DNA from: Leptolyngbyaceae cyanobacterium
GTDB taxonomy: Bacteria > Cyanobacteriota > Cyanobacteriia > Phormidesmidales > Phormidesmidaceae
Length of the DNA stretch: 64,000 bases
Direction of reading: 5' to 3'
Assembly (NCBI GenBank): GCA_965263355.1
Contig: CBDHHL010000056.1
Span: forward strand, 1,024,001 to 1,088,000
This document shows, one piece after another, positions 7,196-23,510 of the stretch; position 1 is the first letter of the stretch, and each line of letters begins with the position of its first letter. The position numbers and the translations under genes are program-made. The notes beneath the pieces were generated by a model. That model did not search any database and was not told the origin of the DNA. It saw only the letters and a list, made by a program, of their open reading frames with translations.

Positions 7196-7224
7196 TGGAC
7201 ATTATCATGCTACACGTGTAGCAT
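7196..7224 (+). promoter_or_regulatory. Sigma70-type promoter overlapped by a perfect 18-bp palindromic operator
   Basis: TGGACA-17nt-TAGCAT; ATGCTACACGTGTAGCAT at 7207-7224; further GCTACA/TGTAGC half-sites near 7068 and 7123. Confidence 0.6.
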
Positions 7225-7324
7225 AGTGAGTGACATAGAAAAAGCGACCCGGTCGAGTTGCTTTGGTTTGGCGTAATCTGCGTCCTTATTTATCAATTAT
7301 TCTGACACCAAAGGTATAGGTCCC

Positions 7325-7591
7325 ATGAAGTTCTCTATAGAATTCAGCGTCATGCATAGATATTTAAATCTGTTTGGCCGTTTGACACGGGTGGTGCGGT
7401 GTCTAGGGATGGGATTTAGTTATCCGACCATTGGTGACCTTTGGACCAACGTAATTGATCACGCTGAATCAGAGCGTTGTGACGCGAGTAAATTATTCCA
7501 TGGCTCGATTATAGGTTATCTCAACCAACCAAAACTCAACCGACATAAACGAAGCGGGGAACCCAGGCGCTTAGCCACGTTACCCATCTAA
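7325..7591 (+). CDS. Putative leader peptide / small hypothetical protein upstream of the HNH gene
   Basis: ORF ending KRSGEPRRLATLPI immediately before a terminator hairpin; its 3' end contains a sequence complementary to the terminator's 5' arm. Confidence 0.5.
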   Translation: MKFSIEFSVMHRYLNLFGRLTRVVRCLGMGFSYPTIGDLWTNVIDHAESERCDASKLFHGSIIGYLNQPKLNRHKRSGEPRRLATLPI

Positions 7592-7616
7592 CCCCAAGAC
7601 CAACGCAGGTTTTTGG

Positions 7617-7657
7617 CCCCCGCTTCCCGGACCCGGAAGCGGGGGTTGATTATTTTT
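7617..7657 (+). terminator. Attenuator-type terminator hairpin before the HNH gene
   Basis: CCCCCGCTTCC (7617-7627) / GGAAGCGGGGG (7635-7645) followed by TTGATTATTTTT. Confidence 0.7.
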
Positions 7658-7667
7658 AGACATTTTT

Positions 7668-8207
7668 TTGGACTCCGAGGGCTTAGCCATGACATTACAA
7701 CCGTATAAGCACGTATTGCCCAAACATCGACCCATCGTCCTCTTTTCCAAAAATTACCTTCCCATGGCGCGAATTAATTTGAAGCGAGCAACGGTTCTTT
7801 TAGTAACAGGTCGGGCAGAACCTGTAGATCTAATCGGGAAAACCTGGCAGATGCGATCGCCCAGCCTAACCCTTGAGATTCCTGAGCATATTCGTCTGCG
7901 GGCTGGGGATAGCGATCGCATCTGGAAGACGCCACCGGTTAATCGTCGCGAAGTCCTGCGGCGCGATGGCCATACTTGTCAATATTGCGGTAGCAAGCGG
8001 CAGCTCACGCTGGATCATGTGGTGCCGCGATCGCAAAGTGGCTCTCACACGTGGGATAACGTGGTTACCGCGTGCGCCCCCTGCAATGCCCGCAAAGGGG
8101 CCTTTACCCCTGAGGTTGCCAATATGCAGCTCAGGCGACGCCCCAAAGCGCCTATGCATCCAGTTGTCGCTTTTGCAAAAAATTTCTGGAAAGAGCAGAA
8201 GATTTAA
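7668..8207 (+). CDS. HNH endonuclease (McrA-like; start probably ATG 7689)
   Basis: RREVLRRDGHTCQYCG...LTLDHVVPRSQSG..TWDNVVTACAPCNARKG. Confidence 0.9.
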   Translation: MDSEGLAMTLQPYKHVLPKHRPIVLFSKNYLPMARINLKRATVLLVTGRAEPVDLIGKTWQMRSPSLTLEIPEHIRLRAGDSDRIWKTPPVNRREVLRRDGHTCQYCGSKRQLTLDHVVPRSQSGSHTWDNVVTACAPCNARKGAFTPEVANMQLRRRPKAPMHPVVAFAKNFWKEQKI

Positions 8208-8263
8208 TAGTTTGTGCCGCCGTCGGCATGTGATTGCCCTACTATCCATGGAGATTGTCAGCC

Positions 8264-8650
8264 GTGTTAAAGCTGAACTATAACGATTTCGGCTTATTCC
8301 TTGAACGGGTACCTATATCGTGGGAAACAGTTGCTAATCAGCGAGTCATATTAGCGATGCGCTCTGGTGAGCCCTTGCATCTAGACCCTAGCTGGGCTTC
8401 CTTTTTGTTACCTGTTGAATTATCTGGTGTTACTCGGCTTAAGTGCTTGCTACGGAAATATTCAGCAGATGCGATCGCACTAACCAAAGTTGACGATGAA
8501 TTTGTTGAAGTCAGCCTGAAAGGGATTTGGATGGCGAGTAGCGTTAACGCTGAATCTGGCACCTTTATTACTGCCCTTGCCTCTGAAAGCGAAATGTTAA
8601 TCTATGAACTGTGGCAAGCGACCCAACGACAGAATGCATATTTTGTATAA
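8264..8650 (+). CDS. Conserved cyanobacterial protein, alr0857-like family
   Basis: From GTG 8264: LKLNYND.G.FLER...RVILAMRSGE.LHLDPSWASFLLP...GIWMAS...ESGTFI; recalled resemblance to the family that follows HNH genes in cyanobacteria. Confidence 0.65.
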   Translation: MLKLNYNDFGLFLERVPISWETVANQRVILAMRSGEPLHLDPSWASFLLPVELSGVTRLKCLLRKYSADAIALTKVDDEFVEVSLKGIWMASSVNAESGTFITALASESEMLIYELWQATQRQNAYFV

Positions 8651-8939
8651 CTGTTGAAGGTGAACTTAAAACGTTTTTTACTGTAGTTTTACAGTAGAGG
8701 TTGTGTCTTTAGTCAACATCTCCAGTTCCCTCTTTTGATCAGGGGGAACTAGGGGGACGTTGCGATCGCTAATATAAGTTTCCCCCTCCTGAAGTGCTCT
8801 TCTATGGGGGGAAACGTTAAGCTGGACAAATCTTGTCTATGTTAAGCATGTAAACATGTGAAACAATTGCCCATATTAAGTAGATGATCCTAATTAGTTA
8901 TCATCCCAACTCTGAATTCGTTAAACCCGATTAAAAATG

Positions 8940-9008
8940 GACAATCCTGTAGGGGCACTCCCTTGTGGATGCCCTGCGATATCGGCTGCTACTAACCAGG
9001 ATTTCGTA
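8940..9008 (+). repeat. REP-like dispersed repeat, copy 1 (long copy also at 16633-16701; core also at 60202-60228)
   Basis: GACAATCC.GTAGGGGCACTCCCTTGTGGATGCCCT.CGATA....TGCTACTA...AGG.TTTCGTA. Confidence 0.7.
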
Positions 9009-9524
9009 TAAAACAAACGCTAAACGGTTTGTTTATATCTTACAAAAGATTAAATACACTTACTTACTAGAGGAGAATCAATACCTCCTCTTCTATCTCT
9101 TGCTGAAAAATACTGCATCTGCAACAGACTCCATAAACATAAGCAGCCTATTACATAAGCCGCAAAAACTTCTTTCCTAACAGGAGAATTACCATGCATT
9201 TTGCTGCACCGATTTTTCTTACCTTGAGCCATAAGCTCTTTAAGCATTTACAACTTCCAAGACAACAACGATCGCCCAACCTAAGTTCACCCAACGAGAG
9301 AAATTCAACAACATCCATTGACAGACATCATGCTGACACTGGAAACAAAGCACAAAAGGTAAAGCGACTTTATCCCCTTGAACGCAACCCCTTTACATAA
9401 GGACTGGGAAGATCCAGAAAGATTCTCTATGTCTATTTTGTTTTTACCCGAGATCCAAGACCACCCACAAAAACCCCTTACAAGCATAGACTCGAGAATC
9501 TCTCAAAAAATCTCCCAAAACCTC

Positions 9525-9553
9525 TTGACACCTTGTAGCGCATTTTGTATTAT
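9525..9553 (+). promoter_or_regulatory. Sigma70 promoter of the tRNA array
   Basis: TTGACA (9525-9530)-17nt-TATTAT (9548-9553), about 100 nt before the first tRNA; TGTAGC in the spacer. Confidence 0.75.
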
Positions 9554-9627: not shown

Positions 9628-9641
9628 GAACCTTGAAAACT
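9628..9641 (+). promoter_or_regulatory. boxA-like antitermination element
   Basis: GAACCTTGAAAACT matches the boxA of cyanobacterial rrn spacers and sits just before the first tRNA. Confidence 0.65.
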
Positions 9642-9656: not shown

Positions 9657-9730
9657 GGGGGTGTAACTCAGTGGTCTAGAGTGCCTGTCTGTCGAACAGG
9701 AAGTCGCGAGTTCAAATCTCGTCACCCCCG
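9657..9730 (+). tRNA. trnD: tRNA-Asp(GTC)
   Basis: GGGGGTG/CACCCCC acceptor; CCTGT-CT GTC GA-ACAGG; T-loop TTCAAAT. Confidence 0.9.
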
Positions 9731-9736
9731 CCTTAT

Positions 9737-9813
9737 AGCCTTGTGGGCGATTAGATAAGCCGCTATGGTTCTCAGCCATAGAGAAGCGGGTGCAACTCCC
9801 GTCAGGGCTCCCA
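9737..9813 (+). tRNA. trnE: Non-canonical tRNA, anticodon CTC (Glu), CCA encoded
   Basis: AGCCTTG/CAGGGCT acceptor; TATGG-TT CTC AG-CCATA; T-loop TGCAACT; atypical D arm. Confidence 0.55.
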
Positions 9814-9885
9814 AAGTTAACTCATGTCGAAGCTGTAGACGCTCTGGAGAAGAAACTTCAGGTTTGTAGCTTGGACATGGTTTAA

Positions 9886-9963
9886 GTCCAGGTAGCCAAG
9901 TTGGTTTAAGGCGTCGGTCTGCAAAACCGAAAATCGTGGGTTCAACTCCCACCCTGGATTCCA
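9886..9963 (+). tRNA. trnC: tRNA-Cys(GCA), CCA encoded
   Basis: GTCCAGG/CCTGGAT; TCGGT-CT GCA AA-ACCGA; U discriminator. Confidence 0.9.
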
Positions 9964-9965
9964 TT

Positions 9966-10037
9966 GCAGAGATGGTGTAACGGTTAGCACCTCGGTCTCC
10001 AAAACCGATGATCTGGGTTCGAATCCTAGTCTCTGTG
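9966..10037 (+). tRNA. trnW: tRNA-Trp(CCA)
   Basis: GCAGAGA/TCTCTGT; TCGGT-CT CCA AA-ACCGA; TTCGAAT. Confidence 0.9.
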
Positions 10038-10097
10038 TTCTGTTGTAGGTCTTCTGCAACAGAAACTTGTCTGTACCGTATCCCCATAGAAAAAGCT

Positions 10098-10170
10098 TAC
10101 ATACTAGCTCAGTTGGTAGAGCATCTGTTTGCAGAACAGACTGTCGCAGGTTCAATTCCTGTCGTATCAC
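10098..10170 (+). pseudogene. Degenerate tRNA (anticodon loop TT GCA GA) with broken acceptor stem
   Basis: D arm (TAGCTCAGTTGGTAGAGC), anticodon arm and T arm intact; acceptor strands do not pair. Confidence 0.7.
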
Positions 10171-10274
10171 GCTTATCCACATCCAGAACTGATGTGTTTT
10201 CCAAAGAAAGCGCTAGGTTTTAACTTGGATGTGGTTGGCACAACGCTTTTTCAACTTATACGGCACAGGCTTTT

Positions 10275-10313
10275 GGTGGCGTAGGCAAATTGGTAAAGCC
10301 ACACGGCTTTCAA
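10275..10313 (+). pseudogene. 5' half of a tRNA-Glu(TTC)
   Basis: GGTGGCG-TA-GGCAAATTGGTAAAGCC-A-CACGG-CT TTC AA, then no 3' half. Confidence 0.6.
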
Positions 10314-10332
10314 TTCTCACCCGACCCTCCTT

Positions 10333-10423
10333 GGAGAGATCGCCATTGGTAAAGCAAACTGCCTGCTAAGCAGTCGTGAGATAGCAAATCTCACTATGGG
10401 TTCGACTCCCATTCTCTCCTCCA
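10333..10423 (+). tRNA. trnS: tRNA-Ser(GCT), long variable arm, unusual short D arm, CCA encoded
   Basis: GGAGAGA/TCTCTCC; ACTGC-CT GCT AA-GCAGT; variable stem GTGAGA/TCTCAC. Confidence 0.85.
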
Positions 10424-10518
10424 GAGAACATGGTATAACCGAATAACACAGTTGAAACCTGTAGTTTTCTCGACGGTCAAAAATAGTTCTAGACGTGGAA
10501 ATGGTTTACACAGAAAAT

Positions 10519-10593
10519 CCCCTGGTAGCTCAGTCAGGTAAGAGCGCTTGTCTGAAAAACAAGAGGTCATCCGTTCAAATCGGATCTGGGGGA
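10519..10593 (+). tRNA. trnF: tRNA-Phe(GAA)
   Basis: CCCCTGG/CTGGGGG; CTTGT-CT GAA AA-ACAAG; TTCAAAT. Confidence 0.9.
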
Positions 10594-10618
10594 CTTGCAC
10601 TCACTGATGAGTGCTCAA

Positions 10619-10694
10619 TGGGGTGTAGTTCAATTGGCAGAGCGCCTGGTTGTTACCCAGGAAGTTAGAGGTTCGACTCCTCTCGCCCCAGCCA
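10619..10694 (+). tRNA. trnN: tRNA-Asn(GTT), CCA encoded
   Basis: TGGGGTG/CGCCCCA; CCTGG-TT GTT AC-CCAGG. Confidence 0.9.
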
Positions 10695-10699
10695 TTTAT

Positions 10700-10775
10700 T
10701 GCCGAGTGGACGAATTAGCAAGTCGCCTGACTCTGAATCAGGAGATTGTAGGTGCAAATCCTACCTCGGCATCCA
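10700..10775 (+). tRNA. trnQ: tRNA-Gln(CTG), CCA encoded
   Basis: TGCCGAG/CTCGGCA; CCTGA-CT CTG AA-TCAGG; T-loop TGCAAAT. Confidence 0.85.
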
Positions 10776-10776
10776 A

Positions 10777-10850
10777 TCCCCTGTGGTGCAATTGGCAGTT
10801 CACGTCCGATTTTGGATCGGAAAATCTAGGTTCAAATCCTAGCGGGGGAG
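10777..10850 (+). tRNA. trnQ: tRNA-Gln(TTG)
   Basis: TCCCCTG/CGGGGGA; TCCGA-TT TTG GA-TCGGA. Confidence 0.85.
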
Positions 10851-10864
10851 TTGGAGTACCAAAT

Positions 10865-10941
<77 letters not shown>

Positions 10942-10944
10942 AAT

Positions 10945-11068
10945 CGGGATGTAATTCAGTGGTCAGAGGCCTTGTTTGCAATTGGTAGACATGCCGTGCT
11001 CAGAACGCGGTTGCTGTGGGTAACTCCTAGCGGAGACGCTTCGCGAACGAATCTCTGGCGACCCACCA
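10945..11068 (+). pseudogene. Chimeric pseudo-tRNA: 5' part of a tRNA-Pro fused to a tRNA-Leu(CAG) remnant whose T-loop carries a small repeat insertion
   Basis: CGGGATGTAATTCAGTGGTCAGAG (Pro-like) joined to GCAATTGGTAGACATG-CCGTG CT CAG AA CGCGG-...GTGGGT[26 nt]CGAAT...ACCA. Confidence 0.7.
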
Positions 11069-11108
11069 AATACCTCACCTATACAACCCATGGACTTTTA
11101 AGTCCCTT

Positions 11109-11182
11109 GCCCCTGTGATGCAATTGGTAGACATGATCCGCTTAAAACGGATTTGTTGCAGGTTCGACTCCTGTCAGGGGTA
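11109..11182 (+). tRNA. trnL: tRNA-Leu(TAA), intronless, short variable loop
   Basis: GCCCCTG/CAGGGGT; ATCCG-CT TAA AA-CGGAT; 5-nt variable region. Confidence 0.85.
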
Positions 11183-11229
11183 TGGCAGTAATGCCAATAA
11201 AAACAAATTTGCAAAAGGAGGTGAATCCG

Positions 11230-11688
11230 ATGAAACTTGCAGAGGCCCTAATGCAACGGGCAGATTGTCAGAAGAGAATCGCTCAGTTGCGTCAGCGATT
11301 GACGCGCAGCGCCAAGGTCCAGGAGGGCGAACAGCCTCCCGAGAATCCTCAAGAGCTGTTGTCAGAGGTGGATACTGCAGTTGCTGAACTTACGCATTTG
11401 GTGCAGCGGATTAATCAGACTAATGCTAGTACAGCATTGGCTGATGGTTCTTTATCAGATGCCCTGGCTCAGCGGGATACTCTATTCACTAAGCGAAGTG
11501 TTTTGGAAAACTTAATCCAAGCTGCATCCATTACCCATGATCGGTACAGCCGTTCGGAGGTAAGATTTGTAAGTACGGTGGATATTGGCAGTCTACAGCG
11601 TCAGTTAGACGATATCTCACGAGACTATCGTTTGCTAGATGCACAGATTCAATCGCTAAACTGGCAGATTGACCTAATAGGTAGTTAA
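11230..11688 (+). CDS. DIP1984-family coiled-coil protein
   Basis: RBS AGGAGG; MKLAEAL.QRAD.QKRI.QLRQRL...AKVQEGE.PPENP.ELL...RYSRSEV.FVSTVD...IQSLNW.IDL. Confidence 0.85.
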   Translation: MKLAEALMQRADCQKRIAQLRQRLTRSAKVQEGEQPPENPQELLSEVDTAVAELTHLVQRINQTNASTALADGSLSDALAQRDTLFTKRSVLENLIQAASITHDRYSRSEVRFVSTVDIGSLQRQLDDISRDYRLLDAQIQSLNWQIDLIGS

Positions 11689-11692
11689 AACA

Positions 11693-11918
11693 AATAGTCG
11701 GTAGCTAAATTCAACAGAAGCGAACACAACCCGCCAACTGGGCAAGTTGGGAAATGTCGTATACTAAACGACCCTTGGATGCGCTGGGGCAGGGCAAATG
11801 GGTTCGACTCCCGTTTATAAATTACGCCCAGCATTGTGACAGGTGCACATCATACTGTGATTGCTTACTACCCTGTGTTGATCGGTTGAATTTAGTGAGG
11901 GTGGGTTCGGGGACTATT
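11693..11918 (+). ncRNA. Putative structured RNA directly downstream of the DIP1984 gene
   Basis: Nested stems AATAGTC/GACTATT, CTAAATTCAAC/GTTGAATTTAG, AACAC/GTGTT, GCTGGG/CCCAGC; internal T-arm-like hairpin AAATGGG-TTCGACT-CCCGTTT. Confidence 0.6.
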
Positions 11919-11965
11919 GCTGGTGTAGCTCAATTGGCAGAACAACTGTCTTGTTAGGACTACCA
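11919..11965 (+). pseudogene. Internally deleted tRNA-Thr(TGT)
   Basis: GCTGGTGTAGCTCAATTGGCAGAACA-ACTGT CT TGT TA, then jumps to CTACCA. Confidence 0.65.
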
Positions 11966-11968
11966 CTT

Positions 11969-12043
11969 GCCTCTATAGCTCAACGGACTCAGAGCAGCGC
12001 CCTTCGAAGGCGACGGTTCCAGGTTCGAATCCTGGTAGAGGTG
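11969..12043 (+). tRNA. trnR: tRNA-Arg(TCG)
   Basis: GCCTCTA/TAGAGGT; CGCC-CT TCG AA-GGCG; TTCGAAT. Confidence 0.85.
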
Positions 12044-12101
12044 CTTGTTATTAATCAGTAAGGAGGTTGTTTTCATTGAAGCTTATGTTATTTAGTTTTA
12101 A

Positions 12102-12423
12102 GCCAGGATCGTAATGCGTGCCCTCACGGTTAGAGCCTACATACTTTAAGTACGAGAGGAACAGTAACACCAAAACGGTGTGCGTTTGCAAACAGGGATC
12201 GCGAAGAATCTGAAAGGTTGGCTTTAAAGTAGCCATCCTCTAAGGAGTGTGTTAAAACTCATCATTGGAGCCCCCTTAGTAGCTGAGAAAACGCTATGCT
12301 CTAAATACTTGCACGACATTGGGAATCCTGGTCATTGGCCTTGATGTATACAGAGAGAACAACATCGGGGAGCCTAGGCAGGACTTCGGCGTAAGCTCAG
12401 TCGAACGCACGAGGCGATTACCC
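12102..12423 (+). ncRNA. Large structured RNA carrying 23S rRNA sarcin-ricin-loop and L11-binding (H43-H44) mimics
   Basis: AGTACGAGAGGAAC at 12149-12162; GGTTGGCTTTAAAGTAGCCATCCTCTAAGGAGTGTGTTAAAACTCA at 12216-12261; closing helices CCAGGAT/ATCCTGG, AATGCGTGC/GCACG-A-CATT, TAGAGC/GCTCTA; 3' boundary approximate. Confidence 0.7.
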
Positions 12424-12455
12424 TACAAGAATTGTCCAGATAAAATGGAGGTTTT

Positions 12456-12905
12456 ATGACGATTTATTTTTATAGCGATCGCAAAAAACCTTATGGGTGT
12501 TTCTCCAATTTTTCGAAGCATGGGGTATTGTTGAATGGTCGATGGTGGCCGACAACAGAACATTATTTCCAGGCTCAGAAATTTATAGACACCGATCCTG
12601 ATTGGGCTGACAAAATTGGTAATGCGAAAGCACCCAAGACTGCTGCAGTAATGGGTAGAGACCGAAGCCACCCTCTCCGTTCTGATTGGGAACAAGTCAA
12701 AGACGACATCATGCATCGAGCCGTGCTCACTAAGTTCCAAACCCATGCAGATATCCAAGCTATTTTGCTAGGGACTGGTGCCGAGCCAATCGTTGAAAAT
12801 GCCCCTGGAGATTACTATTGGGGCTGTGGTAAAGACGGTAGTGGTCTAAATAAATTAGGCCGAATTCTAGAAGCTGTGAGGGCAACAATTCGCGAAACAA
12901 TTTAA
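12456..12905 (+). CDS. NADAR (YbiA-like) N-glycosidase family protein
   Basis: YGCFSNFS, WPTTEHYFQAQKF, RSDWEQVKDDIM, KFQTH, D.YWGCGKDGSGLNKLGRIL. Confidence 0.9.
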   Translation: MTIYFYSDRKKPYGCFSNFSKHGVLLNGRWWPTTEHYFQAQKFIDTDPDWADKIGNAKAPKTAAVMGRDRSHPLRSDWEQVKDDIMHRAVLTKFQTHADIQAILLGTGAEPIVENAPGDYYWGCGKDGSGLNKLGRILEAVRATIRETI

Positions 12906-12908
12906 CAA

Positions 12909-12983
12909 GGGAGTGTCGCCTAAAGGATGGGCATCGATCTTCTAAATCGATCTGTGTAGGTTCAAATCCTACCACTCCTGCCA
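12909..12983 (+). tRNA. trnR: tRNA-Arg(TCT), CCA encoded
   Basis: GGGAGTG/CACTCCT; TCGAT-CT TCT AA-ATCGA. Confidence 0.9.
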
Positions 12984-12993
12984 ATCAAAAAAT

Positions 12994-13094
12994 GGGCCTG
13001 TAGCTTAACTGCGAAAGCATCTGCCTTGCAAGCAGAAAGATGTCGGTACTCTAGCGAGAAGGCTAACGCCTACGAAGCCGACCAGTGGCCACCA
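12994..13094 (+). pseudogene. tRNA-Ala(TGC) with a 25-nt small-repeat insertion in the T-loop and a distorted acceptor stem
   Basis: GGGCCTG...TCTGC-CT TGC AA-GCAGA...GTCGGT[ACTCTAGCGAGAAGGCTAACGCCTA]CGAAG-CCGAC-CAGTGGCC-ACCA. Confidence 0.75.
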
Positions 13095-13113
13095 AATAAT
13101 TTCTTTAACGCAT

Positions 13114-13191
13114 GTTGGCCGAATCCGAAGTGGACGAGGAGCTGGTCTGTGAAACCAGTGTTAGCGGGTTCAAGCCCCGTCGGTCAACCCA
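13114..13191 (+). tRNA. trnH: tRNA-His(GTG) with G-1, CCA encoded
   Basis: G-TTGGCCG/CGGTCAA-C; CTGGT-CT GTG AA-ACCAG. Confidence 0.9.
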
Positions 13192-13194
13192 ATT

Positions 13195-13581
<387 letters not shown>

Positions 13582-13606
13582 AGATTGCTAGATTTTTTCT
13601 CTTTTT

Positions 13607-13750
13607 TCCTGCGCCCTAACCTGTAAAGCATACACACTTTCGGCTTAAAAACCGGGAAAGTGCAAGTTCGAATCTCGCGAGACCGCCATCGGTCTGTAGC
13701 CCAATTGGTAGAGGCACCATGTAACTAAGGCTTTTCAAACTTGCGTGGGA
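13607..13750 (+). ncRNA. YrlA-type Y RNA (circularly permuted tRNA-like domain on a long closing stem)
   Basis: T arm GCAAG-TTCGAAT-CTCGC, acceptor hairpin AGACCG-CCAT-CGGTCT, then D arm TAGCCCAATTGGTAGAGGC; closed by TCCTGCGC/GCGTGGGA; TROVE gene about 1 kb downstream. Confidence 0.75.
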
Positions 13751-13768
13751 TTTTTATTAAGTTTGTAT

Positions 13769-14494
13769 ATGAGCGAACATCGACTGAGTGAAATTGTGAT
13801 TGAACGTCCCCGTGGTGGGATGCGTGTGAGTTCTAGAAAGCTGAAGGGACATCGAAAAGAACTGGAGCAGATTACGCGGGTAGCAACCGAAGATGGGTTG
13901 CTGAGTCCCTATTTGATTAAGCCCAGACGGAAGTCAAAGTGGTTATCAGATCATCTAGGGCCATTGCGTAAGTTGTTGCAGTCTCAAGTGGGTCAGCCCT
14001 GGGATCAGGTCTATAGTCGCCTGTGTCGCGATCTAAATCCTCGTACCATGGCTGGCCAGCATGTGATCGATCATCTCTGGGGTTATGTAGAACAGCATGT
14101 GGAGATCATTGATGGTTTACCCTATACCAAACAGAATCACTGGTATTGGCAAGGTGAACGACGTTCTTTATCGGACTACTATGGAACAAAGTTCTATGTG
14201 AATCCTGAGACAGGTTTACTGTGTGTGGCTCCTAACGTGTGTCGCAGACGAGAACCTGCCCCTCCTGAAGAGGTGATTCAGGTGAACACCTATGAACAGT
14301 ATCGTTGCATAGATCAGATTTGGTATTGCATCACTTTTGAGATATTACATTCACCATTTGCATGGGATGTGCTGTTCAAAGACACTCTTGATGCTAAAAA
14401 GGCTTTACAGTCCTATCGCCGTAAGATCTATGCTGCGAAGAAGCGTCAATGTGGAAAGCGAGACCTTAAAAAGATTCGTAGAATGTTGAAGTAA
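13769..14494 (+). CDS. Basic conserved hypothetical protein
   Basis: ATG 13769; IVIERPRGG...KWLSDHLGPLRKLLQSQVGQPWDQVYS...FYVNPETGLLC...YAAKKRQ; the track's upstream GTG start overlaps the Y RNA. Confidence 0.75.
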   Translation: MSEHRLSEIVIERPRGGMRVSSRKLKGHRKELEQITRVATEDGLLSPYLIKPRRKSKWLSDHLGPLRKLLQSQVGQPWDQVYSRLCRDLNPRTMAGQHVIDHLWGYVEQHVEIIDGLPYTKQNHWYWQGERRSLSDYYGTKFYVNPETGLLCVAPNVCRRREPAPPEEVIQVNTYEQYRCIDQIWYCITFEILHSPFAWDVLFKDTLDAKKALQSYRRKIYAAKKRQCGKRDLKKIRRMLK

Positions 14495-14496
14495 TT

Positions 14497-14674
14497 GGCA
14501 GTTGTTGCTGTGACCTAACTTAAAGAGCTTACATTCTCTACCAACCAAACAGGTGGTGTGCTGATTGGAGAGTCAGCACTGCAAACCCGGACCTTAGCGG
14601 GCGAAGTTATCTTATTGTCTTTTAGCAAACGATGACTTCATGCTCTTTTAACTCATGCAGCGGCAACATCTGCC
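14497..14674 (+). ncRNA. Second Y-RNA-like structured RNA immediately upstream of the TROVE gene
   Basis: GGCAGTTGTTGCTG/CAGCGGCAAC..TGCC and TAAAGAGC/GCTCTTTTA stems; three internal hairpins; shares CCTAAC, TACA and AACT internal-loop motifs with the 13607 RNA. Confidence 0.65.
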
Positions 14675-14684: not shown

Positions 14685-16142
<1,458 letters not shown>

Positions 16143-16226: not shown

Positions 16227-16595
16227 ATGAATACTGCACGGCGAGTTCTAACATCTTCTAGGGATAAAATCAAGTACTCTTTCCTCGATCGCCTTTTTCA
16301 ACGTCTAGAAGAGGCTCTCCAGGAAGGAACAGAGGTAAAATTTCGTCTGGCCTGGGGGAATATCACTGGGATTCCCATTTATTTGGATCCTACCTGTGTC
16401 GAAATCGTCTCTGTTAATGTATATATGGAAGACGATGACGCCCCTTCTGAGGAGATCTCCTGGCGAACGGTTTGGCTGATTCGTTTGGAGGAGGTTAATG
16501 CGATCGCATACCTCAGCGAAAGTTGGTCAAAAAAACGACTTGAACAACTGTTGCCAGAAGAAGAGCAGCCATCTGAGAAGCAGGAAGACAGATAG
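16227..16595 (+). CDS. Hypothetical protein
   Basis: 122-aa ORF with GAGG RBS; beta-rich core. Confidence 0.7.
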   Translation: MNTARRVLTSSRDKIKYSFLDRLFQRLEEALQEGTEVKFRLAWGNITGIPIYLDPTCVEIVSVNVYMEDDDAPSEEISWRTVWLIRLEEVNAIAYLSESWSKKRLEQLLPEEEQPSEKQEDR

Positions 16596-16632: not shown

Positions 16633-16701
16633 GACAATCCCTTAGGGGAACTCCCTTGTGGATGCCCTTCGATACCAAGTGCTACTAGTTAGGCTTTCGT
16701 A
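16633..16701 (+). repeat. REP-like dispersed repeat, copy 2 (direct repeat of 8940-9008)
   Basis: GACAATCCCTTAGGGGAACTCCCTTGTGGATGCCCTTCGATACCAAGTGCTACTAGTTAGGCTTTCGTA. Confidence 0.7.
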
Positions 16702-16755
16702 AAGCAGGTAATCCCAATTAGCTATCAAATATCGAGGACCCGTTCGATAGATAAC

Positions 16756-19700
16756 TTATGAGCAATCTCGGCTCATTACCAAGCGACCATCGGACAATAG
16801 ATAAACAGCTTGAGGTTCCGTAAGGAAATCGTCATCATTATTGTTCTGAGTTGTTGCGGCTTCGTCAGGCAAAGAACGTACAGTGCCTGTGGAAAGTGTT
16901 GATAGGTATACTGCAGTTGGCTGTTGTGGCAAACCATCTCTACCTGTTACCACAAATCGTCCACTACCCTGGGCGACAGGAGCAATACAACTACTGGCCA
17001 CCAGTGTGTCAGTATTCACCAGAACGTCCGACAACTCCGTTAGATTGTTTTCGATAAAACTCACGTCTGGAAAGGTAATCGTACCTGACGAGAGCTGGCC
17101 ACTGGCATTAATATCCACCCGACCATTCATATCTAGGTCAGCTAGCTCTGTACCCGATGGAGATGGTACAAAGCCTTGGCCAAAGAAAATCGGTAAGGTG
17201 ATATTTCCGCCAGCACCATCCTGGGCAAAGGCCAAAATATCGCTATCATCTAAGGCAACCAAATAACCAGCAGCAATGACGATATCACCACCATTATCGG
17301 CCCCACTCGCCACATTGGTCAGAATATCCCCATCACCTGACAAAACAATATTACCTGCACTAATGTTGATTGCTCCACCCGCCGACTGCCTGGCGTCTGT
17401 GCGAATATCTCCATCAGTCACTGTTAGTTGAGCGCCAATGTCAATGATAATACTACCTGCGTTTCCTTGTCCAAAGGCCTGAGCACTTACGGTTCCTCCA
17501 TCCTGAATAATTAGCCCTAAGGAACCGCCAGAGTCTCGAATATTAATTTGTCCTGCGTCACCACTGCCCTCTGTCACTGTAAAAATTCCACTTGAAGGTG
17601 GGGTGTCACCGACGTCTTCAGCGGCAGTTCCTGAAATAGGAGCTGCTGCTGCGACTGTGATACTGTCGGCTTCAGAGACAGGTCTTGAGTTAAGAACCTC
17701 ATCTGATTCAGAGGCAAATCTTGAGTCAGGAATCTCATCTGAGGCGGTTGTGATATTGTCATCTTCAGGAGCCGTTCCTGAAATAAGAATTTCATCTGAG
17801 GCGGTGACATTAATATTACCGGCCTGTCCCTCAGCCGATGTGGATGCCACCAGTTGACCTCCATTTAGGAGTTCTACTTGACCAGCCGTAATGTTAACAT
17901 CACCCCCACGGGCATTTCTGGCAGTACTGCTATCAACAGTGGCACCGTTGTTTAACTGCACTAAACGACCCTGAAGGGTAATATCGCCACCGGCTCCAGC
18001 CATTGCCCCCGCTTCGCTAGCGTCCTGTGCGCGTGCCTCTGCGTTAACAGTCCCCTCATTCTGAATCACAATATCCAGATGGCCATTGCCAGCATCCTGA
18101 ATCTTGATCTCACCTGCAGCCCCCATGCCTTCTGTAAAGGCAAACACTCCACTTTGGGCAGGTTCGTCTTCACTTACGGTAGGATCAATACCCGAAATTA
18201 GGACTTCTTCCGATGCGGTGACATTAATACTACCGGCCTGTCCCTCAGCTGATGTGGACGCCACCAGTTGACCTCCATTTAGGAGTTCTACTTGCTCAGC
18301 GGTGATATTAACATCACCCCCACGGGCATTTCGGGCCGTACTGCTATCAACAGTTGCATTGTTGGTTAGCTGCACTGAACGACCCTGAAGGGTAATATCA
18401 CCACCAGTACCAGCCATTGCGCCTGCTTCTTCGCTAGTACCCTGTGCGCGTGCCTCTGCGTTAACAGTTCCCTCATTCTGAATCACGATATCCAGATGGC
18501 CATTGCCATCATCTTGAATAGTGATCTGGCCCGCAGCCCCCATCCCTTCTGTAAAGGTGAATACTCCACTTTGGATAGTGTCGTCTTCACTCACAATAAA
18601 GTTATTATCATCAGCCTTATTCTCAATGAACCCGTCATCTCTAGGATCAATACCCGAAATCAGCAATTCATCTGATGCGGTGATAATAATACTACCCGCC
18701 TGACCACCTGCCGATGTGGACGCTATGAGCTGTGCCCCATCCAGTATCTCTATGTGTTCAGCCGTAATCTCAATATCACCACCTTGAAAATCTCCGTCGC
18801 TACTACTATCAATAATGCCGCCAGTTCCTATCCGTAACGAACGAACATGGAGAACAATGTCACCACCTGCTCCAGAACTATCACCATCATTGCTGACTTC
18901 ACTGTTACTAAAAAATCCACTGGGTGAGTTTCGTAAGTCGTCTGGATCAAATGAACCAAATGTTCCGATTTCAATCGAGTCAGCAGTCACCTCGATCTGT
19001 CCGGCATCGCCTGCTCCTTCAATAGCAAAGACTTTAATCTGACCATTGTCCGAGAGTCTCACAGCATGGGCATTGACAATAACATTACCCGTATTAATAT
19101 TGTTTTCAACGCCTGCATTTGGCCCTTCCACAGAAGCATTGATATCGCTATTCCCGTCAATGATCAAATCCCCTGTGAGAGTAATCTCAATGTTGCCCGG
19201 TTCTCCATTGGCTTTATTAAAAACTTTAATCGCACTGACCTCAATCAAGGTAAGGGAATGGGCATTAATGATTACATCTCCACCAGTTCCTACAGAACCG
19301 CCCTTGACAATAGATTCGATTTTGCCACGGTCGGTCATAAGCATGTCACCGTTGACAGTAATAAAGACAGATCCGGCATCACCAAGGGCATTATCAGAGG
19401 AACTGGACGTAATGCCACTAGATCCAGATTCAACCGGACCATTCATAGTAAATTCATTGACCGTAATGTAAATATCCCCAGCATCACCAGTATCTTCAGT
19501 CGTCGTGGAAATCAAGGCCTGATCACCATTGTCATCATCTACCGGTGTTTCAAATCGTAACGAGTCAGCCACAATTCGAATATCGCCGGAGTCTCCTTGG
19601 CCACCATTATCGTCGACACGATTAGTGATTTGCCCCCCATCTAAAAACAGCTCCCCACCAGCTGTTATAACGGTATCGCCTGTCCCTCCAATGCCCTTAA

Positions 19701-21594
19701 GTTCATTCTCAATTTGAGAGTTTCTGAAATAAATGTCACCATCCACAGTTATATCAATACTGCCACTAAAGCCGCCTACGGCATTCCTGGCTAGAGTGTT
19801 GATAATTTTACTTTTATTAAATGCTTCGAGATCACCGGTCAATACAATGATGACATCCCCAGACTGCCTACCCAAGGTGCCTCTTCTACTATCATAACCA
19901 CCCCCTACATTGGACTTGTTCATCAGGATCAAGTTATGGGCATAGATCCGGACATCGCCATTTTCTCCAGTGTCCCCCTTTAGCTCACTTTCGATGTCAC
20001 TCCTGTCTAGCTCAATATCACCCGCCACGGTCACAAGAACACCGCCACTATCACCGATGGCTCCCCTCGATAACTCAGTGGAAATGTCGCTGTCAAAGGC
20101 ATCGAGATTACCGGTTAACTCGATAATGACATCCCCTGATTGAATGTCCGGTAGGGTGCCATCAAAATCATCATCAACCTCGCTATCATTCTCCGCTTGA
20201 ATCGCACTACCGTTCAGGTTCAAATTATGGGCAGAGATTTGAATATCACCACTACTGCCAATGCCTTCATCGATCAGATTTTTAATTTCGGTATCCTCTA
20301 GATCAATATCACCAGCCACAGTCACAACAATATCGCCAATGCTCCCTTGAGCATCTTCAGATAGTTGGTTAATAATTTCACTGTCGCTAAACGTCTGAAG
20401 ATTTCCAGTTAGGTCGATAATAATATCTCCTGACTGGCTGTTGGGTGAGCCTGCTTCGTCATCAAAACCACTGGTAATTTTACTCTCATTCATTAGGGTT
20501 AGATTACGAGCAGAGATTTGAATATCACCACTACTGCCAATGCCCTCGATCTCGCTGTTGATTTCGGTATTATCTAGGGTAATATCGCCGACAACGGTCA
20601 AAACAATATTGCCGATGGTGCCTTGGGCATCGTCGTCTAGTTTATTAGAAATCTCGCTGTTAGTCGCTTGGAGATTACCCGTTAGGTCAATAATAATATC
20701 CCCTGACTCACTGTTGGGTGTGTCTCCCTGGTCTCGTAACCCTGCGTCAAGTTCACTATCGTTTAGGGTTAAATCATGGGCATAAATTCGAATACTACCG
20801 CCATCATTACCGTCTACTTGAAGTTCGACATCATTTACGATGTCAACATCTGCACGCACAGCATTCTCGGGAAATTGGAGCATGCCTTCGGGCGAAAACT
20901 CCACCCGTCCAGGGGCAGCCAAGCCACCAAGTTCAATTAATCCTTCACGGGCTCGAACCCTGGTGTCTTCATTTTCTAAGATGACCTTTCCACCTACAAG
21001 TTGAAATGCTTCACCTCGCTCCATTTCTAATCGCCCCTGGCTACTGATTTCATTGGGGACCAACTGATTAAAGATCAGGGCAGACGGTTGGATGACGAGT
21101 AAACTATCGGGAGGTGCGATCGGGTCTTGAGTACCAAAGAGAAACTCCTCTCCAAATTCGATACCATCGGCAGTGGAGGCCAGAAATGAGCCCTCCATAT
21201 CGAGTTCGGCATTAGGACCGATAAAAATACCGTTGGGGTTAATTAGGAAAAAGTCTGCATCTTCAGAGATACTCAACGTACCTAAGATGTCAGACATGTT
21301 AGCGCCTGTGACACGGGTAAAGATAGTTGCAATACTGTCATCGAGAGAGAACTCTACTGTCTGGCCCTCATCGATACTAAATTCTGAAAAACTGTGGAAC
21401 AGGTTGGAACCTCGGGCTGCGCCACCTTCTACCAGGTCGGCATTAAACTGGGAGTTCTCGAGCCCGAGGGTATTATCAGGGATAATGTCTGCGCGAAGGA
21501 TGGGACAAAGTACTACTTGACTCAAGAAACTGATGAATACAGCGATACTGGTTCGTGTAGTACCTTTTTTCCAGTTTTGCCAGTTCGTAATCAT
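16756..21594 (-). CDS. Filamentous haemagglutinin-family (TpsA-like) exoprotein with internal repeats
   Basis: Signal peptide; GSNLFHSFSEFSI...IFTRVTG...FFLINPNGI secretion domain; G.GG.I.I.A beta-helix repeats; C-terminal FVVTGRDGLP. Confidence 0.9.
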   Translation of the reverse strand: MITNWQNWKKGTTRTSIAVFISFLSQVVLCPILRADIIPDNTLGLENSQFNADLVEGGAARGSNLFHSFSEFSIDEGQTVEFSLDDSIATIFTRVTGANMSDILGTLSISEDADFFLINPNGIFIGPNAELDMEGSFLASTADGIEFGEEFLFGTQDPIAPPDSLLVIQPSALIFNQLVPNEISSQGRLEMERGEAFQLVGGKVILENEDTRVRAREGLIELGGLAAPGRVEFSPEGMLQFPENAVRADVDIVNDVELQVDGNDGGSIRIYAHDLTLNDSELDAGLRDQGDTPNSESGDIIIDLTGNLQATNSEISNKLDDDAQGTIGNIVLTVVGDITLDNTEINSEIEGIGSSGDIQISARNLTLMNESKITSGFDDEAGSPNSQSGDIIIDLTGNLQTFSDSEIINQLSEDAQGSIGDIVVTVAGDIDLEDTEIKNLIDEGIGSSGDIQISAHNLNLNGSAIQAENDSEVDDDFDGTLPDIQSGDVIIELTGNLDAFDSDISTELSRGAIGDSGGVLVTVAGDIELDRSDIESELKGDTGENGDVRIYAHNLILMNKSNVGGGYDSRRGTLGRQSGDVIIVLTGDLEAFNKSKIINTLARNAVGGFSGSIDITVDGDIYFRNSQIENELKGIGGTGDTVITAGGELFLDGGQITNRVDDNGGQGDSGDIRIVADSLRFETPVDDDNGDQALISTTTEDTGDAGDIYITVNEFTMNGPVESGSSGITSSSSDNALGDAGSVFITVNGDMLMTDRGKIESIVKGGSVGTGGDVIINAHSLTLIEVSAIKVFNKANGEPGNIEITLTGDLIIDGNSDINASVEGPNAGVENNINTGNVIVNAHAVRLSDNGQIKVFAIEGAGDAGQIEVTADSIEIGTFGSFDPDDLRNSPSGFFSNSEVSNDGDSSGAGGDIVLHVRSLRIGTGGIIDSSSDGDFQGGDIEITAEHIEILDGAQLIASTSAGGQAGSIIITASDELLISGIDPRDDGFIENKADDNNFIVSEDDTIQSGVFTFTEGMGAAGQITIQDDGNGHLDIVIQNEGTVNAEARAQGTSEEAGAMAGTGGDITLQGRSVQLTNNATVDSSTARNARGGDVNITAEQVELLNGGQLVASTSAEGQAGSINVTASEEVLISGIDPTVSEDEPAQSGVFAFTEGMGAAGEIKIQDAGNGHLDIVIQNEGTVNAEARAQDASEAGAMAGAGGDITLQGRLVQLNNGATVDSSTARNARGGDVNITAGQVELLNGGQLVASTSAEGQAGNINVTASDEILISGTAPEDDNITTASDEIPDSRFASESDEVLNSRPVSEADSITVAAAAPISGTAAEDVGDTPPSSGIFTVTEGSGDAGQINIRDSGGSLGLIIQDGGTVSAQAFGQGNAGSIIIDIGAQLTVTDGDIRTDARQSAGGAINISAGNIVLSGDGDILTNVASGADNGGDIVIAAGYLVALDDSDILAFAQDGAGGNITLPIFFGQGFVPSPSGTELADLDMNGRVDINASGQLSSGTITFPDVSFIENNLTELSDVLVNTDTLVASSCIAPVAQGSGRFVVTGRDGLPQQPTAVYLSTLSTGTVRSLPDEAATTQNNNDDDFLTEPQAVYLLSDGRLVMSRDCS

Positions 21595-21993
21595 CAGTTT
21601 CTCCTCCTTACTCAGGATTTAGCATGAAAAAATGGCATGCCAAAAGCATATCAGTGACTTGGAGGTGTTGATCATGGGTTAATGAAAATAATTAAATTTT
21701 TCTACGAAGTAGACCAGTTCAATCCTTGGCATGCCCCACCTACACAACCTGAATATATTCAGCTCAACTGGGAACCGCTGGCTATAGTTAGGGTGCTGGA
21801 TTTAATCCTGACGGCTGGCTCAATTGCTGGAGGAAGTGAAGGAATTCATGACATTAGCAAAAACCTCAGTCACCTTTTTCCGGACATACCGCCAAAATTA
21901 TTGATTTTGTCCAATCTATTAGGCAAGATCTCGTATAGTTTTCGCTAAGCATTAGGAATTAACACCGGGGTTGCTGTTAAAGACATTCAGGAG

Positions 21994-22836
21994 GTGATCC
22001 CCATGGTTAATATCCATCAGCTACTAAATCATTTTATTGATACTGAGCAGGAACTCTGCCAGTCCGACTTTTTGGCTCCCTGTGTACGGCAGGGCTGTCT
22101 ACGTACCCGTGTGAATGGGTTGGTGTATACCTTTAATTTAAAGGGATGGCCGTTTGAAGGTTGGGGGGTGTTTCGTCCGGCAACGTTTGAGACGGCAACG
22201 TTGGTGATGGAAGCTAATTTGCCCCAGGTGGAGCAGTACTTGACACCACTGCCTGCTTTTCGACTGCGTCTGTTGTATCGGCTGCAACATTGTAGCTGGT
22301 TGGCCTATCCCACCAATGAATCGGATGCTCGACAGCGGTTAGGGCAGGTAAAGCCTGTAGTAGTACACCTTGTGTCTGAGGGGGGTGCCTTTGATCAGGT
22401 CATTGCTCGCTGGGATGGGAATGCGTTTTGGTTTGATCAGGTGGATCGCCGAGCGGATGTGGCAATTGCGCCCTATCTCCGTCAATCTCTCACTGACGAA
22501 ACCTGGCCTGATGATCTTCGCATCAAGGGCCTCACCCCAGAGGATCGGACAGCCTATGACCTGGCTATCCAGCATATACCTGGATTTTTTCCGGAAAAGC
22601 AAGATGAACAACGGTTACGTCGGGCACTCAAAACTGGTGGTGGTAATCTGCAACAGTTTCAGGATCAGGGAGACTTTTGGACGGTCCATTGGACGACGGC
22701 AGATGGTGAATATCACACGAGTGCCATTGCTAAGGATGATCTGACGGTGATTAGCGCAGGAATTTGTTTGAGCGATCGCGATCGCGACTTTGATCTGCAA
22801 TCCCTGGTCGGTGTAGTAGAGAAGAGTGATCTGTAG
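21994..22836 (+). CDS. Conserved hypothetical protein adjacent to the ThiF gene
   Basis: RBS AGGAGG; 280 aa; C-terminal DLTVISAGICLSDRDRDFDLQSLVGVV. Confidence 0.75.
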   Translation: MIPMVNIHQLLNHFIDTEQELCQSDFLAPCVRQGCLRTRVNGLVYTFNLKGWPFEGWGVFRPATFETATLVMEANLPQVEQYLTPLPAFRLRLLYRLQHCSWLAYPTNESDARQRLGQVKPVVVHLVSEGGAFDQVIARWDGNAFWFDQVDRRADVAIAPYLRQSLTDETWPDDLRIKGLTPEDRTAYDLAIQHIPGFFPEKQDEQRLRRALKTGGGNLQQFQDQGDFWTVHWTTADGEYHTSAIAKDDLTVISAGICLSDRDRDFDLQSLVGVVEKSDL

Positions 22837-22877
22837 GCTTCAACTTCGCTCAGCCTACAGAGACGGAGGAGATAACG

Positions 22878-23510
22878 ATGACATATTTGTTTCATGAGCG
22901 ACTGGCTCGATCGACTAAGGCGATGGAGCAGCTAAGGCAGTCTGCTGTGACGATCTGTGGTGCCGGTGCCTTGGGTGGAAATATTGCTGAGACACTGGTG
23001 CGATCTGGGGTAGGGCAGTTGAAGGTGATTGATTGCGATCGCATCGAAGAACGCAACCTGTCCACCCAGCCCTACACTCGTGCGGATGTAGGAGGCTTTA
23101 AGGCCAAGGTGTTAGCCAATAGCTTGTATCGAGCTGTGGGGACCCTGGCCGAGGCAGAAACCAAGCGATTCACCGCAGCCAATGGTCATAAGCTGTTAGG
23201 TAGCCCTAATTTGGTGATCGATGCTTTTGACAACAGCGGTTCTCGTCAAGCTGTTAAAGATAGCTGTAACAAAATTCACGTACCTTGTCTGCATGCAGGG
23301 TTGAGCGAAGACTACGCTGAAGTGATTTGGAATCCTTTATATAAAGTCCCTTCACCTGCCAATGATGATATGTGCGATTATCCTTTGAGTCGGACTTTGG
23401 TCATGCTCACGGCTACTGTGACTGCAGAAGTCGCTATCCGTTTCTTGATTGATGGAACGACTCAGAGTTTCACAATGACTCAAAAAGACTTTTCCATTAC
23501 GCCTTTTTAG
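22878..23510 (+). CDS. ThiF/MoeB/E1-family adenylyltransferase
   Basis: ICGAGALGG, LKVIDCDRIEERNLSTQ, VIDAFDN. Confidence 0.9.
   Translation: MTYLFHERLARSTKAMEQLRQSAVTICGAGALGGNIAETLVRSGVGQLKVIDCDRIEERNLSTQPYTRADVGGFKAKVLANSLYRAVGTLAEAETKRFTAANGHKLLGSPNLVIDAFDNSGSRQAVKDSCNKIHVPCLHAGLSEDYAEVIWNPLYKVPSPANDDMCDYPLSRTLVMLTATVTAEVAIRFLIDGTTQSFTMTQKDFSITPF

Follow-up and report, generated by a model that had tools for sequence, protein, structure and literature searches.

L-arrays are defined as tandem runs of at least 20 tRNA genes (PMC4758250). They are described as having an HNH endonuclease gene upstream, as being induced by ribosome-targeting antibiotics, and as carrying tandem promoter repeats over the -10 region (PMC8421152). 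In Anabaena, the repressor TrcR, its box and its targets, which include alr0856 (an HNH gene) and alr0857, have been reported (PMC10272220). Here we analyze positions 7196-23510 of a 64,000-nucleotide stretch from a Leptolyngbyaceae cyanobacterium (contig CBDHHL010000056.1; the whole stretch is called the window, and all positions refer to it unless a locus number is given), in which such an array surrounds part of a further system. A 66-amino-acid ubiquitin-like protein (Ubl), Y-like RNAs, a divergent Ro60-like protein, a core protein that we call orf277, and an E1-type enzyme form an apparently new module, a variant of the Ro60-Y RNA system inside a known array. With the L-array or trn operon and the TrcR regulon of Anabaena PCC 7120, the locus shares tandem tRNA genes beginning with Asp(GUC), the upstream HNH gene, an alr0857-family gene, RNA-processing neighbors and, in degenerate form, tandem repeats over the -10 region (PMC8421152, PMC10272220). 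It differs in that only about 15 intact tRNA genes are present in the window and in that the Ro60 module is also found without arrays; the excerpted L-array descriptions contain no mention of Ro60, Y RNA, Ubl or rRNA mimics (PMC8421152, PMC10272220).

The second described relative is bacterial Ro60 (Rsr) with the RNAs YrlA, YrlB, Yrn1 and Yrn2, with which our locus has in common a HEAT-repeat ring joined to a vWA domain with a MIDAS (metal-ion-dependent adhesion site), RNAs encoded alongside on the same strand, a bulged stem formed by the 5' and 3' ends, a permuted tRNA-like domain in the order T-acceptor-D, and members that consist of a bare hairpin (PMC4201824). A Ro60 protein is also known from the phage phiLo (PMC12135203). 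The protein studied here is, however, only 13-17% identical to the Ro60 proteins of solved structure, and its RNAs carry the handle sequence CCYRAC...UACAYAC/RACUU in place of the GNCGAAN0-1G motif of Y RNAs (PMC4201824); they occur in numbers of up to nine per locus, possess full anticodon arms and 23S rRNA cargoes, and are in fixed linkage with Ubl, E1 and orf277. GOLLD and ROOL are likewise structured RNAs that lie by tRNA clusters, but these are RNA-only cages of 600 to more than 800 nucleotides (PMC12286853). The handle RNAs are mostly 74-154 nucleotides long and have no GOLLD or ROOL match in Rfam, and such an identity was ruled out for the 23S-like RNA, for which Rfam returned no such match.

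Two further groups are comparable. The ThiS-ThiF and MoaD-MoeB systems and the bacterial Ubl conjugation systems Cap2, Bil and Bub have E1 motifs with a conserved cysteine and a small partner with a terminal glycine in common with our locus, which differs in its YG tail, in the lack of a recognizable E2 or JAB protein, and in an RNA context that is not that of the cyclic oligonucleotide-based antiphage system CBASS; a PADLOC scan returned a generic E1 domain match only. Burroughs and Aravind, whose study is cited in PMC7824862, reportedly described, in 2016, RNA-repair platforms built on Rot/TROVE and band-7 proteins with tRNA-like RNAs and with RtcB, KptA and NADAR as neighbors; the TROVE scaffold, the tRNA-like partner and the nearby RtcB, KptA or NADAR genes would be the shared traits. 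A full-text literature search, outside of which most of the subscription literature lies, found neither arrays of Y-like RNAs with rRNA cargo nor a Ro60 protein with a Ubl/E1 pair; earlier surveys may list the clade. An original prediction, made from the sequence alone, had regarded the entire combination as undescribed. This appears to hold for the core of Ro60-like protein, Ubl, RNAs, orf277 and E1, while the tRNA array, the HNH gene and the regulation are published (PMC8421152, PMC10272220).

The handle RNAs and their cargoes

Between the gene for the 66-residue protein and that for the Ro60-like protein, the relatives of this locus carry repeated units whose ends are fixed and whose middles are variable. 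All of these RNAs belong to a single family, in which the handle stays constant and the cargo can be exchanged, the main feature of the locus and one that the original prediction overlooked. Searching the window and 185 further loci by pattern yielded 427 distinct elements, a set that includes a few false matches and misplaced 3' ends (window RNA 4 is an example). In the handle, a stem of 9 bp leads to a CCY bulge, after which come two pairs, a small loop and another 9-bp stem, followed by UACAYAC. In 36 hand-picked minimal elements, 87% of the cells are paired and 15 of the 20 pairs have changed on both sides; none of 500 shuffles reaches this level of pairing, slid registers attain 33-44%, and flanking pairs that had not been used for selection are paired at 75-87% against shuffle maxima of 52-64%, figures in which kinship among the sequences is only partly controlled. 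When looked for in the manner of YrlA-type RNAs (within 4 kb and on the same strand), at least one handle RNA is found in 24 of 28 Ro60-like loci, and in the window RNAs 2-4 lie within 2.6 kb of the Ro60-like gene and RNA 1 at 4.5 kb from it, on its strand. When a covariance model of the handle alone is run on the window, it picks up 5' halves only, with weak scores (E 0.04-6), since long cargo lies beyond its span.

A selfish inverted repeat that had captured scraps of tRNA and rRNA without serving in any ribonucleoprotein (RNP) would likewise leave repeated units whose middles vary, and small repeats do enter tRNA genes at this locus. Against such an origin, the handle is confined to genomes with a Ro60-like gene, bar one; its copies lie on the same strand, cluster at the module and show compensatory changes, and the cargo classes have been kept across phyla. 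We strongly disfavor this explanation and give it next to no credence.

Among the 427 elements, the cargo is a normal-order tRNA in 108, a T arm only in 92, a permuted tRNA in 87, minimal in 64, of the type of window RNA 4 in 17, a D arm only in 13, helix 69 (H69) of 23S rRNA in 11 (18 after regrouping), the sarcin-ricin loop (SRL) in 10, and of some other kind in 25. The window holds four handle RNAs, one of them eroded. This is RNA 1 (10075-10180, + strand; core motif at 10094), whose cargo is a normal-order tRNA that lacks a full acceptor stem; Rfam recognizes tRNA positions 8-63 only, and the covariance match at 10093-10130 is weak. In cargoes of this order, the 5' acceptor strand is at the same time the invariant motif of the handle. 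Among the elements listed, eleven normal-order cargoes have a stop-codon-reading anticodon loop (UUA or CUA), borne on differing stems (for instance L165:406-523, L054:714-832 and L011:2937-3053). Next to RNA 1, positions 10170-10245 form a stem-loop unit that ends in AACUUG and has a closing helix; it is faintly handle-like and has no blastn homologue.

RNA 3 (13604-13752, +) is a circularly permuted tRNA in the order anticodon arm, T arm, acceptor hairpin and D arm. In 50 elements of the permuted class, strong covariation is seen in the T stem and in the acceptor stem, and the T-acceptor-D order of the tRNA-like domain occurs in 87 of the 427 elements. This class matches the YrlA model at its positions 24-84 only, with E values down to 6e-5 and with the handle outside the match; in five scanned loci the best score was 38 bits against a gathering score of 69 for RF02553, and the window gave no match. 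The YrlA motif GNCGAAN0-1G is present in 3 of 427 elements and GGUCCGA in none. What had been predicted as Y RNAs are therefore structured RNAs beside a Ro60-like gene, but not YrlA by either the Rfam cut-off or the motif. RNA 4 (14497-14674, +) has a three-hairpin cargo, folds strongly as a single sequence (z -6.0, compared with z -2.6 for 12095-12420), and belongs to a class whose members have the Ro60-like gene after them in 14 of 17 cases.

RNA 2 (12113-12320, +) joins a copy of the SRL (12149-12160) to a copy of helices 43-44 (H43-H44; 12211-12264) of 23S rRNA's GTPase-associated center (GAC), two sites that are 1.5 kb apart in 23S rRNA. The rRNA comparisons were made with one Leptolyngbya 23S sequence, and the helix names were assigned from 23S positions. 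The best H43-H44 match of the SRL-GAC class extends over 56 nucleotides with a score of 33.5 (maximum of 12 mononucleotide shuffles, 13), while the copy in the window scores 21 against a maximum of 15 in 200 shuffles and reaches 42 bits (E 2.3e-9) on the large-subunit (LSU) rRNA model of Rfam; its counterpart in G001 exceeds the LSU cut-off. The exact 12-nucleotide SRL sequence occurs in all ten elements defined by their GAC copy, where it is closed by a covarying helix. In the H69 class, helix 69 was matched in 18 of 18 elements, at best over 28 nucleotides with one mismatch and above the shuffled nulls; the likeness claimed is limited to H69 and a few bases after it, and a circular permutation of the whole H67-H71 region was rejected, as best-rotation scores were not clearly above a null that keeps H69.

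The factor-binding center of the ribosome is made up of H44 and the SRL, and a bacterial toxin that ADP-ribosylates rRNA acts on H44 (PMC8661411). The union of the two sites in a single RNA could create, together with L11 and an L7/L12 paralogue, a miniature factor-binding center that sequesters EF-G/EF-Tu or stalk proteins, with H69 and the tRNA mimics holding recycling factors and synthetases, so that translation is slowed or paused in stress. An L7/L12 paralogue is found in 8 of 85 loci, but none was seen in the window, the SRL-GAC class is a minor one (10 of 427 elements), and Ubl and E1 are left unaccounted for; we regard a store of this kind as improbable. The L7/L12 paralogue is embedded among handle RNAs at L168:833-1222 and in seven other loci. 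The gene after the SRL-GAC RNA (n = 17) encodes orf277 in six cases, KptA in five, NADAR in three and a protein without an assigned family in three; in the window, NADAR (12456-12905, +; PF08719, E 8.9e-39) occupies this slot, which KptA/Tpt1 or orf277 holds in relatives.

The Ro60-like protein, its partners and their co-occurrence

The gene at 14706-16142 (+) encodes a 478-amino-acid protein with a HEAT ring and a vWA domain with an intact MIDAS. Its structural model, built from 25 sequences, has a pLDDT of 86.7, and the top 11 Foldseek matches are all Ro60/Rsr proteins (E 3e-11 to 7e-9, TMq 0.60-0.71). With a profile of 60 sequences, human Ro60 is found at E 1.8e-17, the Xenopus protein at 8e-13, that of phiLo at 3e-12 and Rsr at 5e-7. 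Just five columns are invariant, all of them MIDAS residues (D301, S303, S305, T363 and D387). The sequence SLHIKP aligns with LSHIKP of the Xenopus protein, whose histidine probably contacts Y RNA. Pfam places the vWA_Ro60 model at 14.2 bits, below its gathering score of 27.7, and gives no TROVE match. The predicted Ro60 identity is thus upheld by the modeled fold and the deep profile and not by Pfam TROVE, and on these grounds we assign the protein to a divergent Ro60 clade missed by annotation (506 representatives at 50% identity, E <1e-30). One of 18 scanned relatives (P0138) is a fusion with EF-Tu domain 3; another (P0126) carries an intein with LAGLIDADG domains. Two Ro60-like paralogues lie in tandem in L004, L008, L027 and L056, with a handle RNA before each in L004 and L056, and a 160-amino-acid protein without a Pfam match is encoded just 5' of the Ro60-like gene (L169:834-1313) in 24 of 85 loci.

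The 66-amino-acid Ubl (13381-13581, +) ends in EAVYG and has no match in the family databases; the terminal glycine is present in all 92 distinct homologues and EAVYG in 88. The E1-like adenylyltransferase (22878-23510, +; PF00899, E 9.3e-30) has the GxGxxG and DxxDN motifs and an invariant Cys166, and its best family matches are ThiF. A model of the E1-Ubl complex scored 0.74 versus 0.00 for the best control, above a mark that 116 of 157 solved pairs and 2 of 215 mismatched ones attain; the contacts agree to at least 97% between runs, the pLDDT of the partner is at least 90, and the Ubl tail (Y65-G66) is placed on the nucleotide loop of E1, in the active site. This predicted binding may reflect the solved complexes of the ThiS-ThiF type. 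The third partner, orf277 (22003-22836, +), has an invariant Cys255 (GxCL) and collected 1091 matches among 8000 candidates. Its model has a pLDDT of 48.9 and a best Z score of 6.0, with no E2 protein among the structure matches; OB-like matches of residues 81-150 were weak (Z about 5) and are not relied on. An E2-like role of orf277 would be a guess.

The likeness of E1 to ThiF is in keeping with a reading in which the handles are processing or storage leaders that release extra, even stop-reading, tRNAs and in which Ubl and E1 serve a sulfur relay of the ThiS/ThiF type for tRNA thiolation. RNase P cuts the YrlA RNA of M. smegmatis, to which CCA is added (PMC4201824), and this reading would also make sense of the handle motif as a 5' acceptor strand and of the 11 elements with UUA or CUA loops. 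None of the permuted, rRNA-like and bare-hairpin cargoes can, however, be a tRNA, many anticodons share a single constant acceptor sequence, and there is no sulfurtransferase among the recurrent neighbors of 85 loci. We hold a tRNA supply of this kind to be very unlikely.

Co-occurrence was assessed in a single sample of 401 cyanobacterial genomes, in which shared ancestry inflates the counts. The Ro60-like protein is present in 46 and the exact handle pattern in 42 of them (a reversed-pattern control gave 0); 41 genomes have both, 5 the protein alone, 1 the handle alone, and 354 neither. orf277 is encoded in 45 of the 46 Ro60-like genomes and beyond these was found as two broken copies. Outside the cyanobacteria, the Ro60-like protein is present in 5 of 301 genomes of the phylum Acidobacteriota, and Bacteroidota are among the named module loci. 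Loci found by the RNA alone (metagenome loci of at least 8 kb, with some overlap) contain Ubl in 25 of 32 and the Ro60-like gene in 23 of 32 cases, with at least five tRNA calls in only 6 of 32. In 28 loci found by the protein, many of them cut by contig ends, handle RNA is present in 24, Ubl in 17, orf277 in 12, ThiF in 9, DIP1984 in 5, HNH in 5 and NADAR in none, and ten have at least ten tRNA calls. The tRNA and rRNA mimics, the Ro60-type protein and the Ubl/E1 pair do co-occur, and the absence of co-occurrence that the original prediction named as refuting it was not seen for the core. The idea of a single system fares less well, since modules may lack NADAR, DIP1984 or the array among their neighbors.

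One handle-pattern match, unaccompanied by module genes, was found in viral contigs, and carriage by phages was rejected on this basis; plasmids contributed two records. Five long loci (L029, L031, L059, L090 and L095) have one handle-pattern match and no module genes; these are chance matches or orphan RNAs.

Among the neighbors in 85 loci, KptA occurs nine times, the L7/L12 paralogue eight times, RtcB four times and an RNase T-family exonuclease three times. Enzymes of this kind would be expected if the RNAs acted as a quality-control tether comparable to the RYPER complex of Deinococcus, in which the cargo would bring the cell's own nucleases, ligases and recycling factors to the Ro ring and damaged tRNA and rRNA would be fed to them. 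Tethering by Y RNA is the established mechanism of Ro60 (PMC4201824), and the fusion to EF-Tu domain 3 is in keeping with it. A dedicated nuclease is, however, not among the core members, and a tether leaves the retention of many anticodon loops, including UUA and CUA, unexplained. We consider it somewhat unlikely, while it is the alternative to which we give most weight.

A possible role in translation stress

In relatives, tandem TrcR-like repeats lie 5' of the Ubl gene in 29 of 64 regions (shuffle mean 0.42, maximum 3), nearly all of them directly behind TTGACA. Building on the observed anatomy, covariation, mimicry, co-occurrence and promoter architecture of the relatives, our preferred but tentative reading, in which our confidence stays a little short of even, is that the module forms a translation-stress RNP that rides in a known tRNA L-array, with the cargo as bait and with Ubl tagging downstream. 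Stalled translation would lower TrcR and thereby switch on the operon, and we consider such an induction by stress likely. The Ro60-like ring would then bind each handle as Ro60 binds Y RNA, a step that we hold to be quite probable. The cargo would serve as bait for proteins that recognize the mimicked sites of tRNA and rRNA, above all ribotoxins and toxins that modify RNA; NADAR or KptA beside the SRL-GAC RNA, and RtcB where present, would handle ADP-ribose or broken ends; and E1 would activate Ubl, which orf277 would pass to proteins caught on the RNP. The bait, end-repair and tagging steps jointly are the uncertain part of this mechanism. That the core belongs to a translation-stress response, as the original prediction had it, is partly supported, while decoy action, tRNA replacement and lesion reversal are functions that we, like that prediction, infer.

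Several observations weigh against this reading. The L7/L12 paralogue and the EF-Tu domain-3 fusion fit a recruitment of the cell's own factors equally well. Taken alone, the SRL match (12-14 nucleotides, exact) lacks significance by length, being within reach of the null (maximum 13), and the 12-nucleotide sequence occurs twice in the reference 23S rRNA; for the cargo of RNA 4 an rRNA model was rejected, with best matches of 9.5-11 lying within the null. Repair enzymes must be seen as optional because NADAR is missing from all 28 loci of the first set and RtcB occurs in only 4 of 85. The Ubl tail is YG and not GG, and Ubl could be a sulfur carrier; an E2 fold finds no support for orf277, with a poor model, no E2 among the structure matches and no Pfam, PDB or Atlas match. 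Finally, the copy in the window is eroding, with a degenerate handle 1, weak promoter repeats and broken tRNA genes; eroded and rearranged as it looks, it may therefore be only partly active.

A bolder version of the same idea would see the handle RNAs as an expandable library, in which a single Ro60-like reader, together with a handle that stays constant, displays swappable anticodon arms, tRNA elbows, the SRL-GTPase center and H69, a proposal that we find rather unlikely. In that proposal, every attacker of the mimicked sites would be caught on this RNP and tagged with the ubiquitin-like protein. If true, it would amount to an RNA-bait defense whose specificity is altered by swapping RNA cassettes. 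Why bacterial Y RNAs resemble tRNA is a standing question, and their interactors are described as unidentified (PMC4201824). Since one handle is combined with many cargoes, including free-standing ribosomal sites, handle and cargo are separately testable in cultured cyanobacteria. The handle offers a natural scaffold for the display of RNA domains, a ubiquitin-like pair and the translation-stress regulon of TrcR are now tied to a Ro60 clade missed by annotation, and with the module the cell may bait attacks on its translation apparatus or repair them.

The tRNA array and neighboring genes

The array extends from 9657 to 13281 (+) and comprises 14 tRNA genes called by ARAGORN, with other parts embedded among them. 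Two further tRNA matches were made by Rfam only (10105-10162, limited to model positions 8-63, and 13115-13188), and fragments or genes broken by insertions are located at about 10245, 10945, 12994 and 13283. We call the array partial and eroding because of these fragments and broken genes and because there is no intact call for nine amino acids; the original prediction of a complete island fails here, as ARAGORN reports no intact tRNA for Met, Gly, Ala, Lys, Thr, Val, Ile, Pro or Tyr. With 14 ARAGORN genes, one Rfam-only gene and remnants, it stays below the 20 tRNA genes of the L-array definition, while the HNH gene is in its upstream position; from its sequence it reads as an eroded L-array. 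Short hairpin insertions in T-loops, which we take to resemble small dispersed cyanobacterial repeats, disrupt tRNA genes at 10945-11068 and 12993-13095 and also break handle cargoes (L036:6926-7089, L130 and L131). A degenerate tRNA-like unit with a GAU loop at 13283-13357, missed by both ARAGORN and Rfam, is conserved at 78-92% in seven other array loci. Some tRNA calls in such arrays are handle-embedded mimics, not tRNA genes.

Of the strong promoters that had been predicted, the one at 9525-9553 (+; TTGACA-17-TATTAT, 11/12 consensus) stands as the best of the region and is the putative promoter of the array. It is overlain by two degenerate tandem TrcR-like repeats (9534 and 9546) that fall short of the strict tandem pattern found in 29 of the 64 Ubl promoters of relatives. 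The site at 7196-7224 (+) attains only 9/12 and has a single octamer resembling the TrcR box (PMC10272220) over its -10 region; promoter-like sites overall are not enriched in the region (20 seen, 22.5 expected by chance). An antitermination motif of the rrn type at 9628-9640 (+), predicted as a boxA, is identical to the motif of two Leptolyngbya rRNA operons (loci L187 and L189 of one genome). The HNH endonuclease (7689-8207, +; PF01844, E 4.5e-15) and the alr0857-family protein (8234-8650, +; NF045647, above cut-off) precede the array in the published HNH/alr0857/array layout, and the provision of spare tRNAs under translational stress is therefore published biology.

Within the array, the gene for a DIP1984/DUF6847 protein (11230-11688, +; NF038048, PF20935) is followed by a conserved RNA (11695-11918, +) that is not a handle RNA and belongs to no Rfam family. 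In six other loci, of which three are from Bacteroidota, a relative of this RNA comes after a DIP1984 gene, and 14 of 38 predicted pairs have changed on both sides (7 sequences, several of them close kin). Its status as a structured RNA is confirmed by sequence comparison, on which it rests since folding of the single sequence 11695-11905 gave a z of only -0.2. All four structured RNAs originally proposed are thus conserved (11695-11918, 12113-12320, 13604-13752 and 14497-14674), and the eroded RNA at about 10075-10180 makes a fifth. The predicted tRNA genes and the HNH, DIP1984, NADAR and ThiF proteins are likewise present, as judged by ARAGORN and Rfam calls and by Pfam and NCBI family matches.

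Optional members are a conserved protein of 241 amino acids (13769-14494, +; in 16 of 85 loci) and one of 122 amino acids (16227-16595, +; in 7 of 85), neither of which matched a family in hidden Markov model scans; an Sm-like label for the latter, an impression only, was dropped. No RNA ligase was found among the scanned open reading frames of the interval, whose content, like the relatives, suggests a cyanobacterial source. The claim of a co-oriented run does not hold throughout: a 4.8-kb gene on the opposite strand (16756-21594) splits the interval and takes up 30% of it. It encodes an exoprotein of 1612 amino acids with a two-partner secretion (TPS) domain (PF05860, E 8.5e-40). The module is uninterrupted in L190, L191, L194, L198 and L199, which have no TPS gene; the gene lies inside the interval but does not belong to the system. 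DNA contigs of two sequencing runs, which may be the source sample, cover 30 of 30 bins, and a single contig bridges 10886-17875. A dispersed repeat of about 70 bp is present at 8940-9010, 16633-16702 and about 60210, one copy flanking the TPS gene, and the contig depth at this repeat is several times background. Beyond the interval, genes read from their sequence as an ABC exporter (23570-26837) adjoin a large type I polyketide synthase gene (26960-33412, - strand) and are unrelated to the module.

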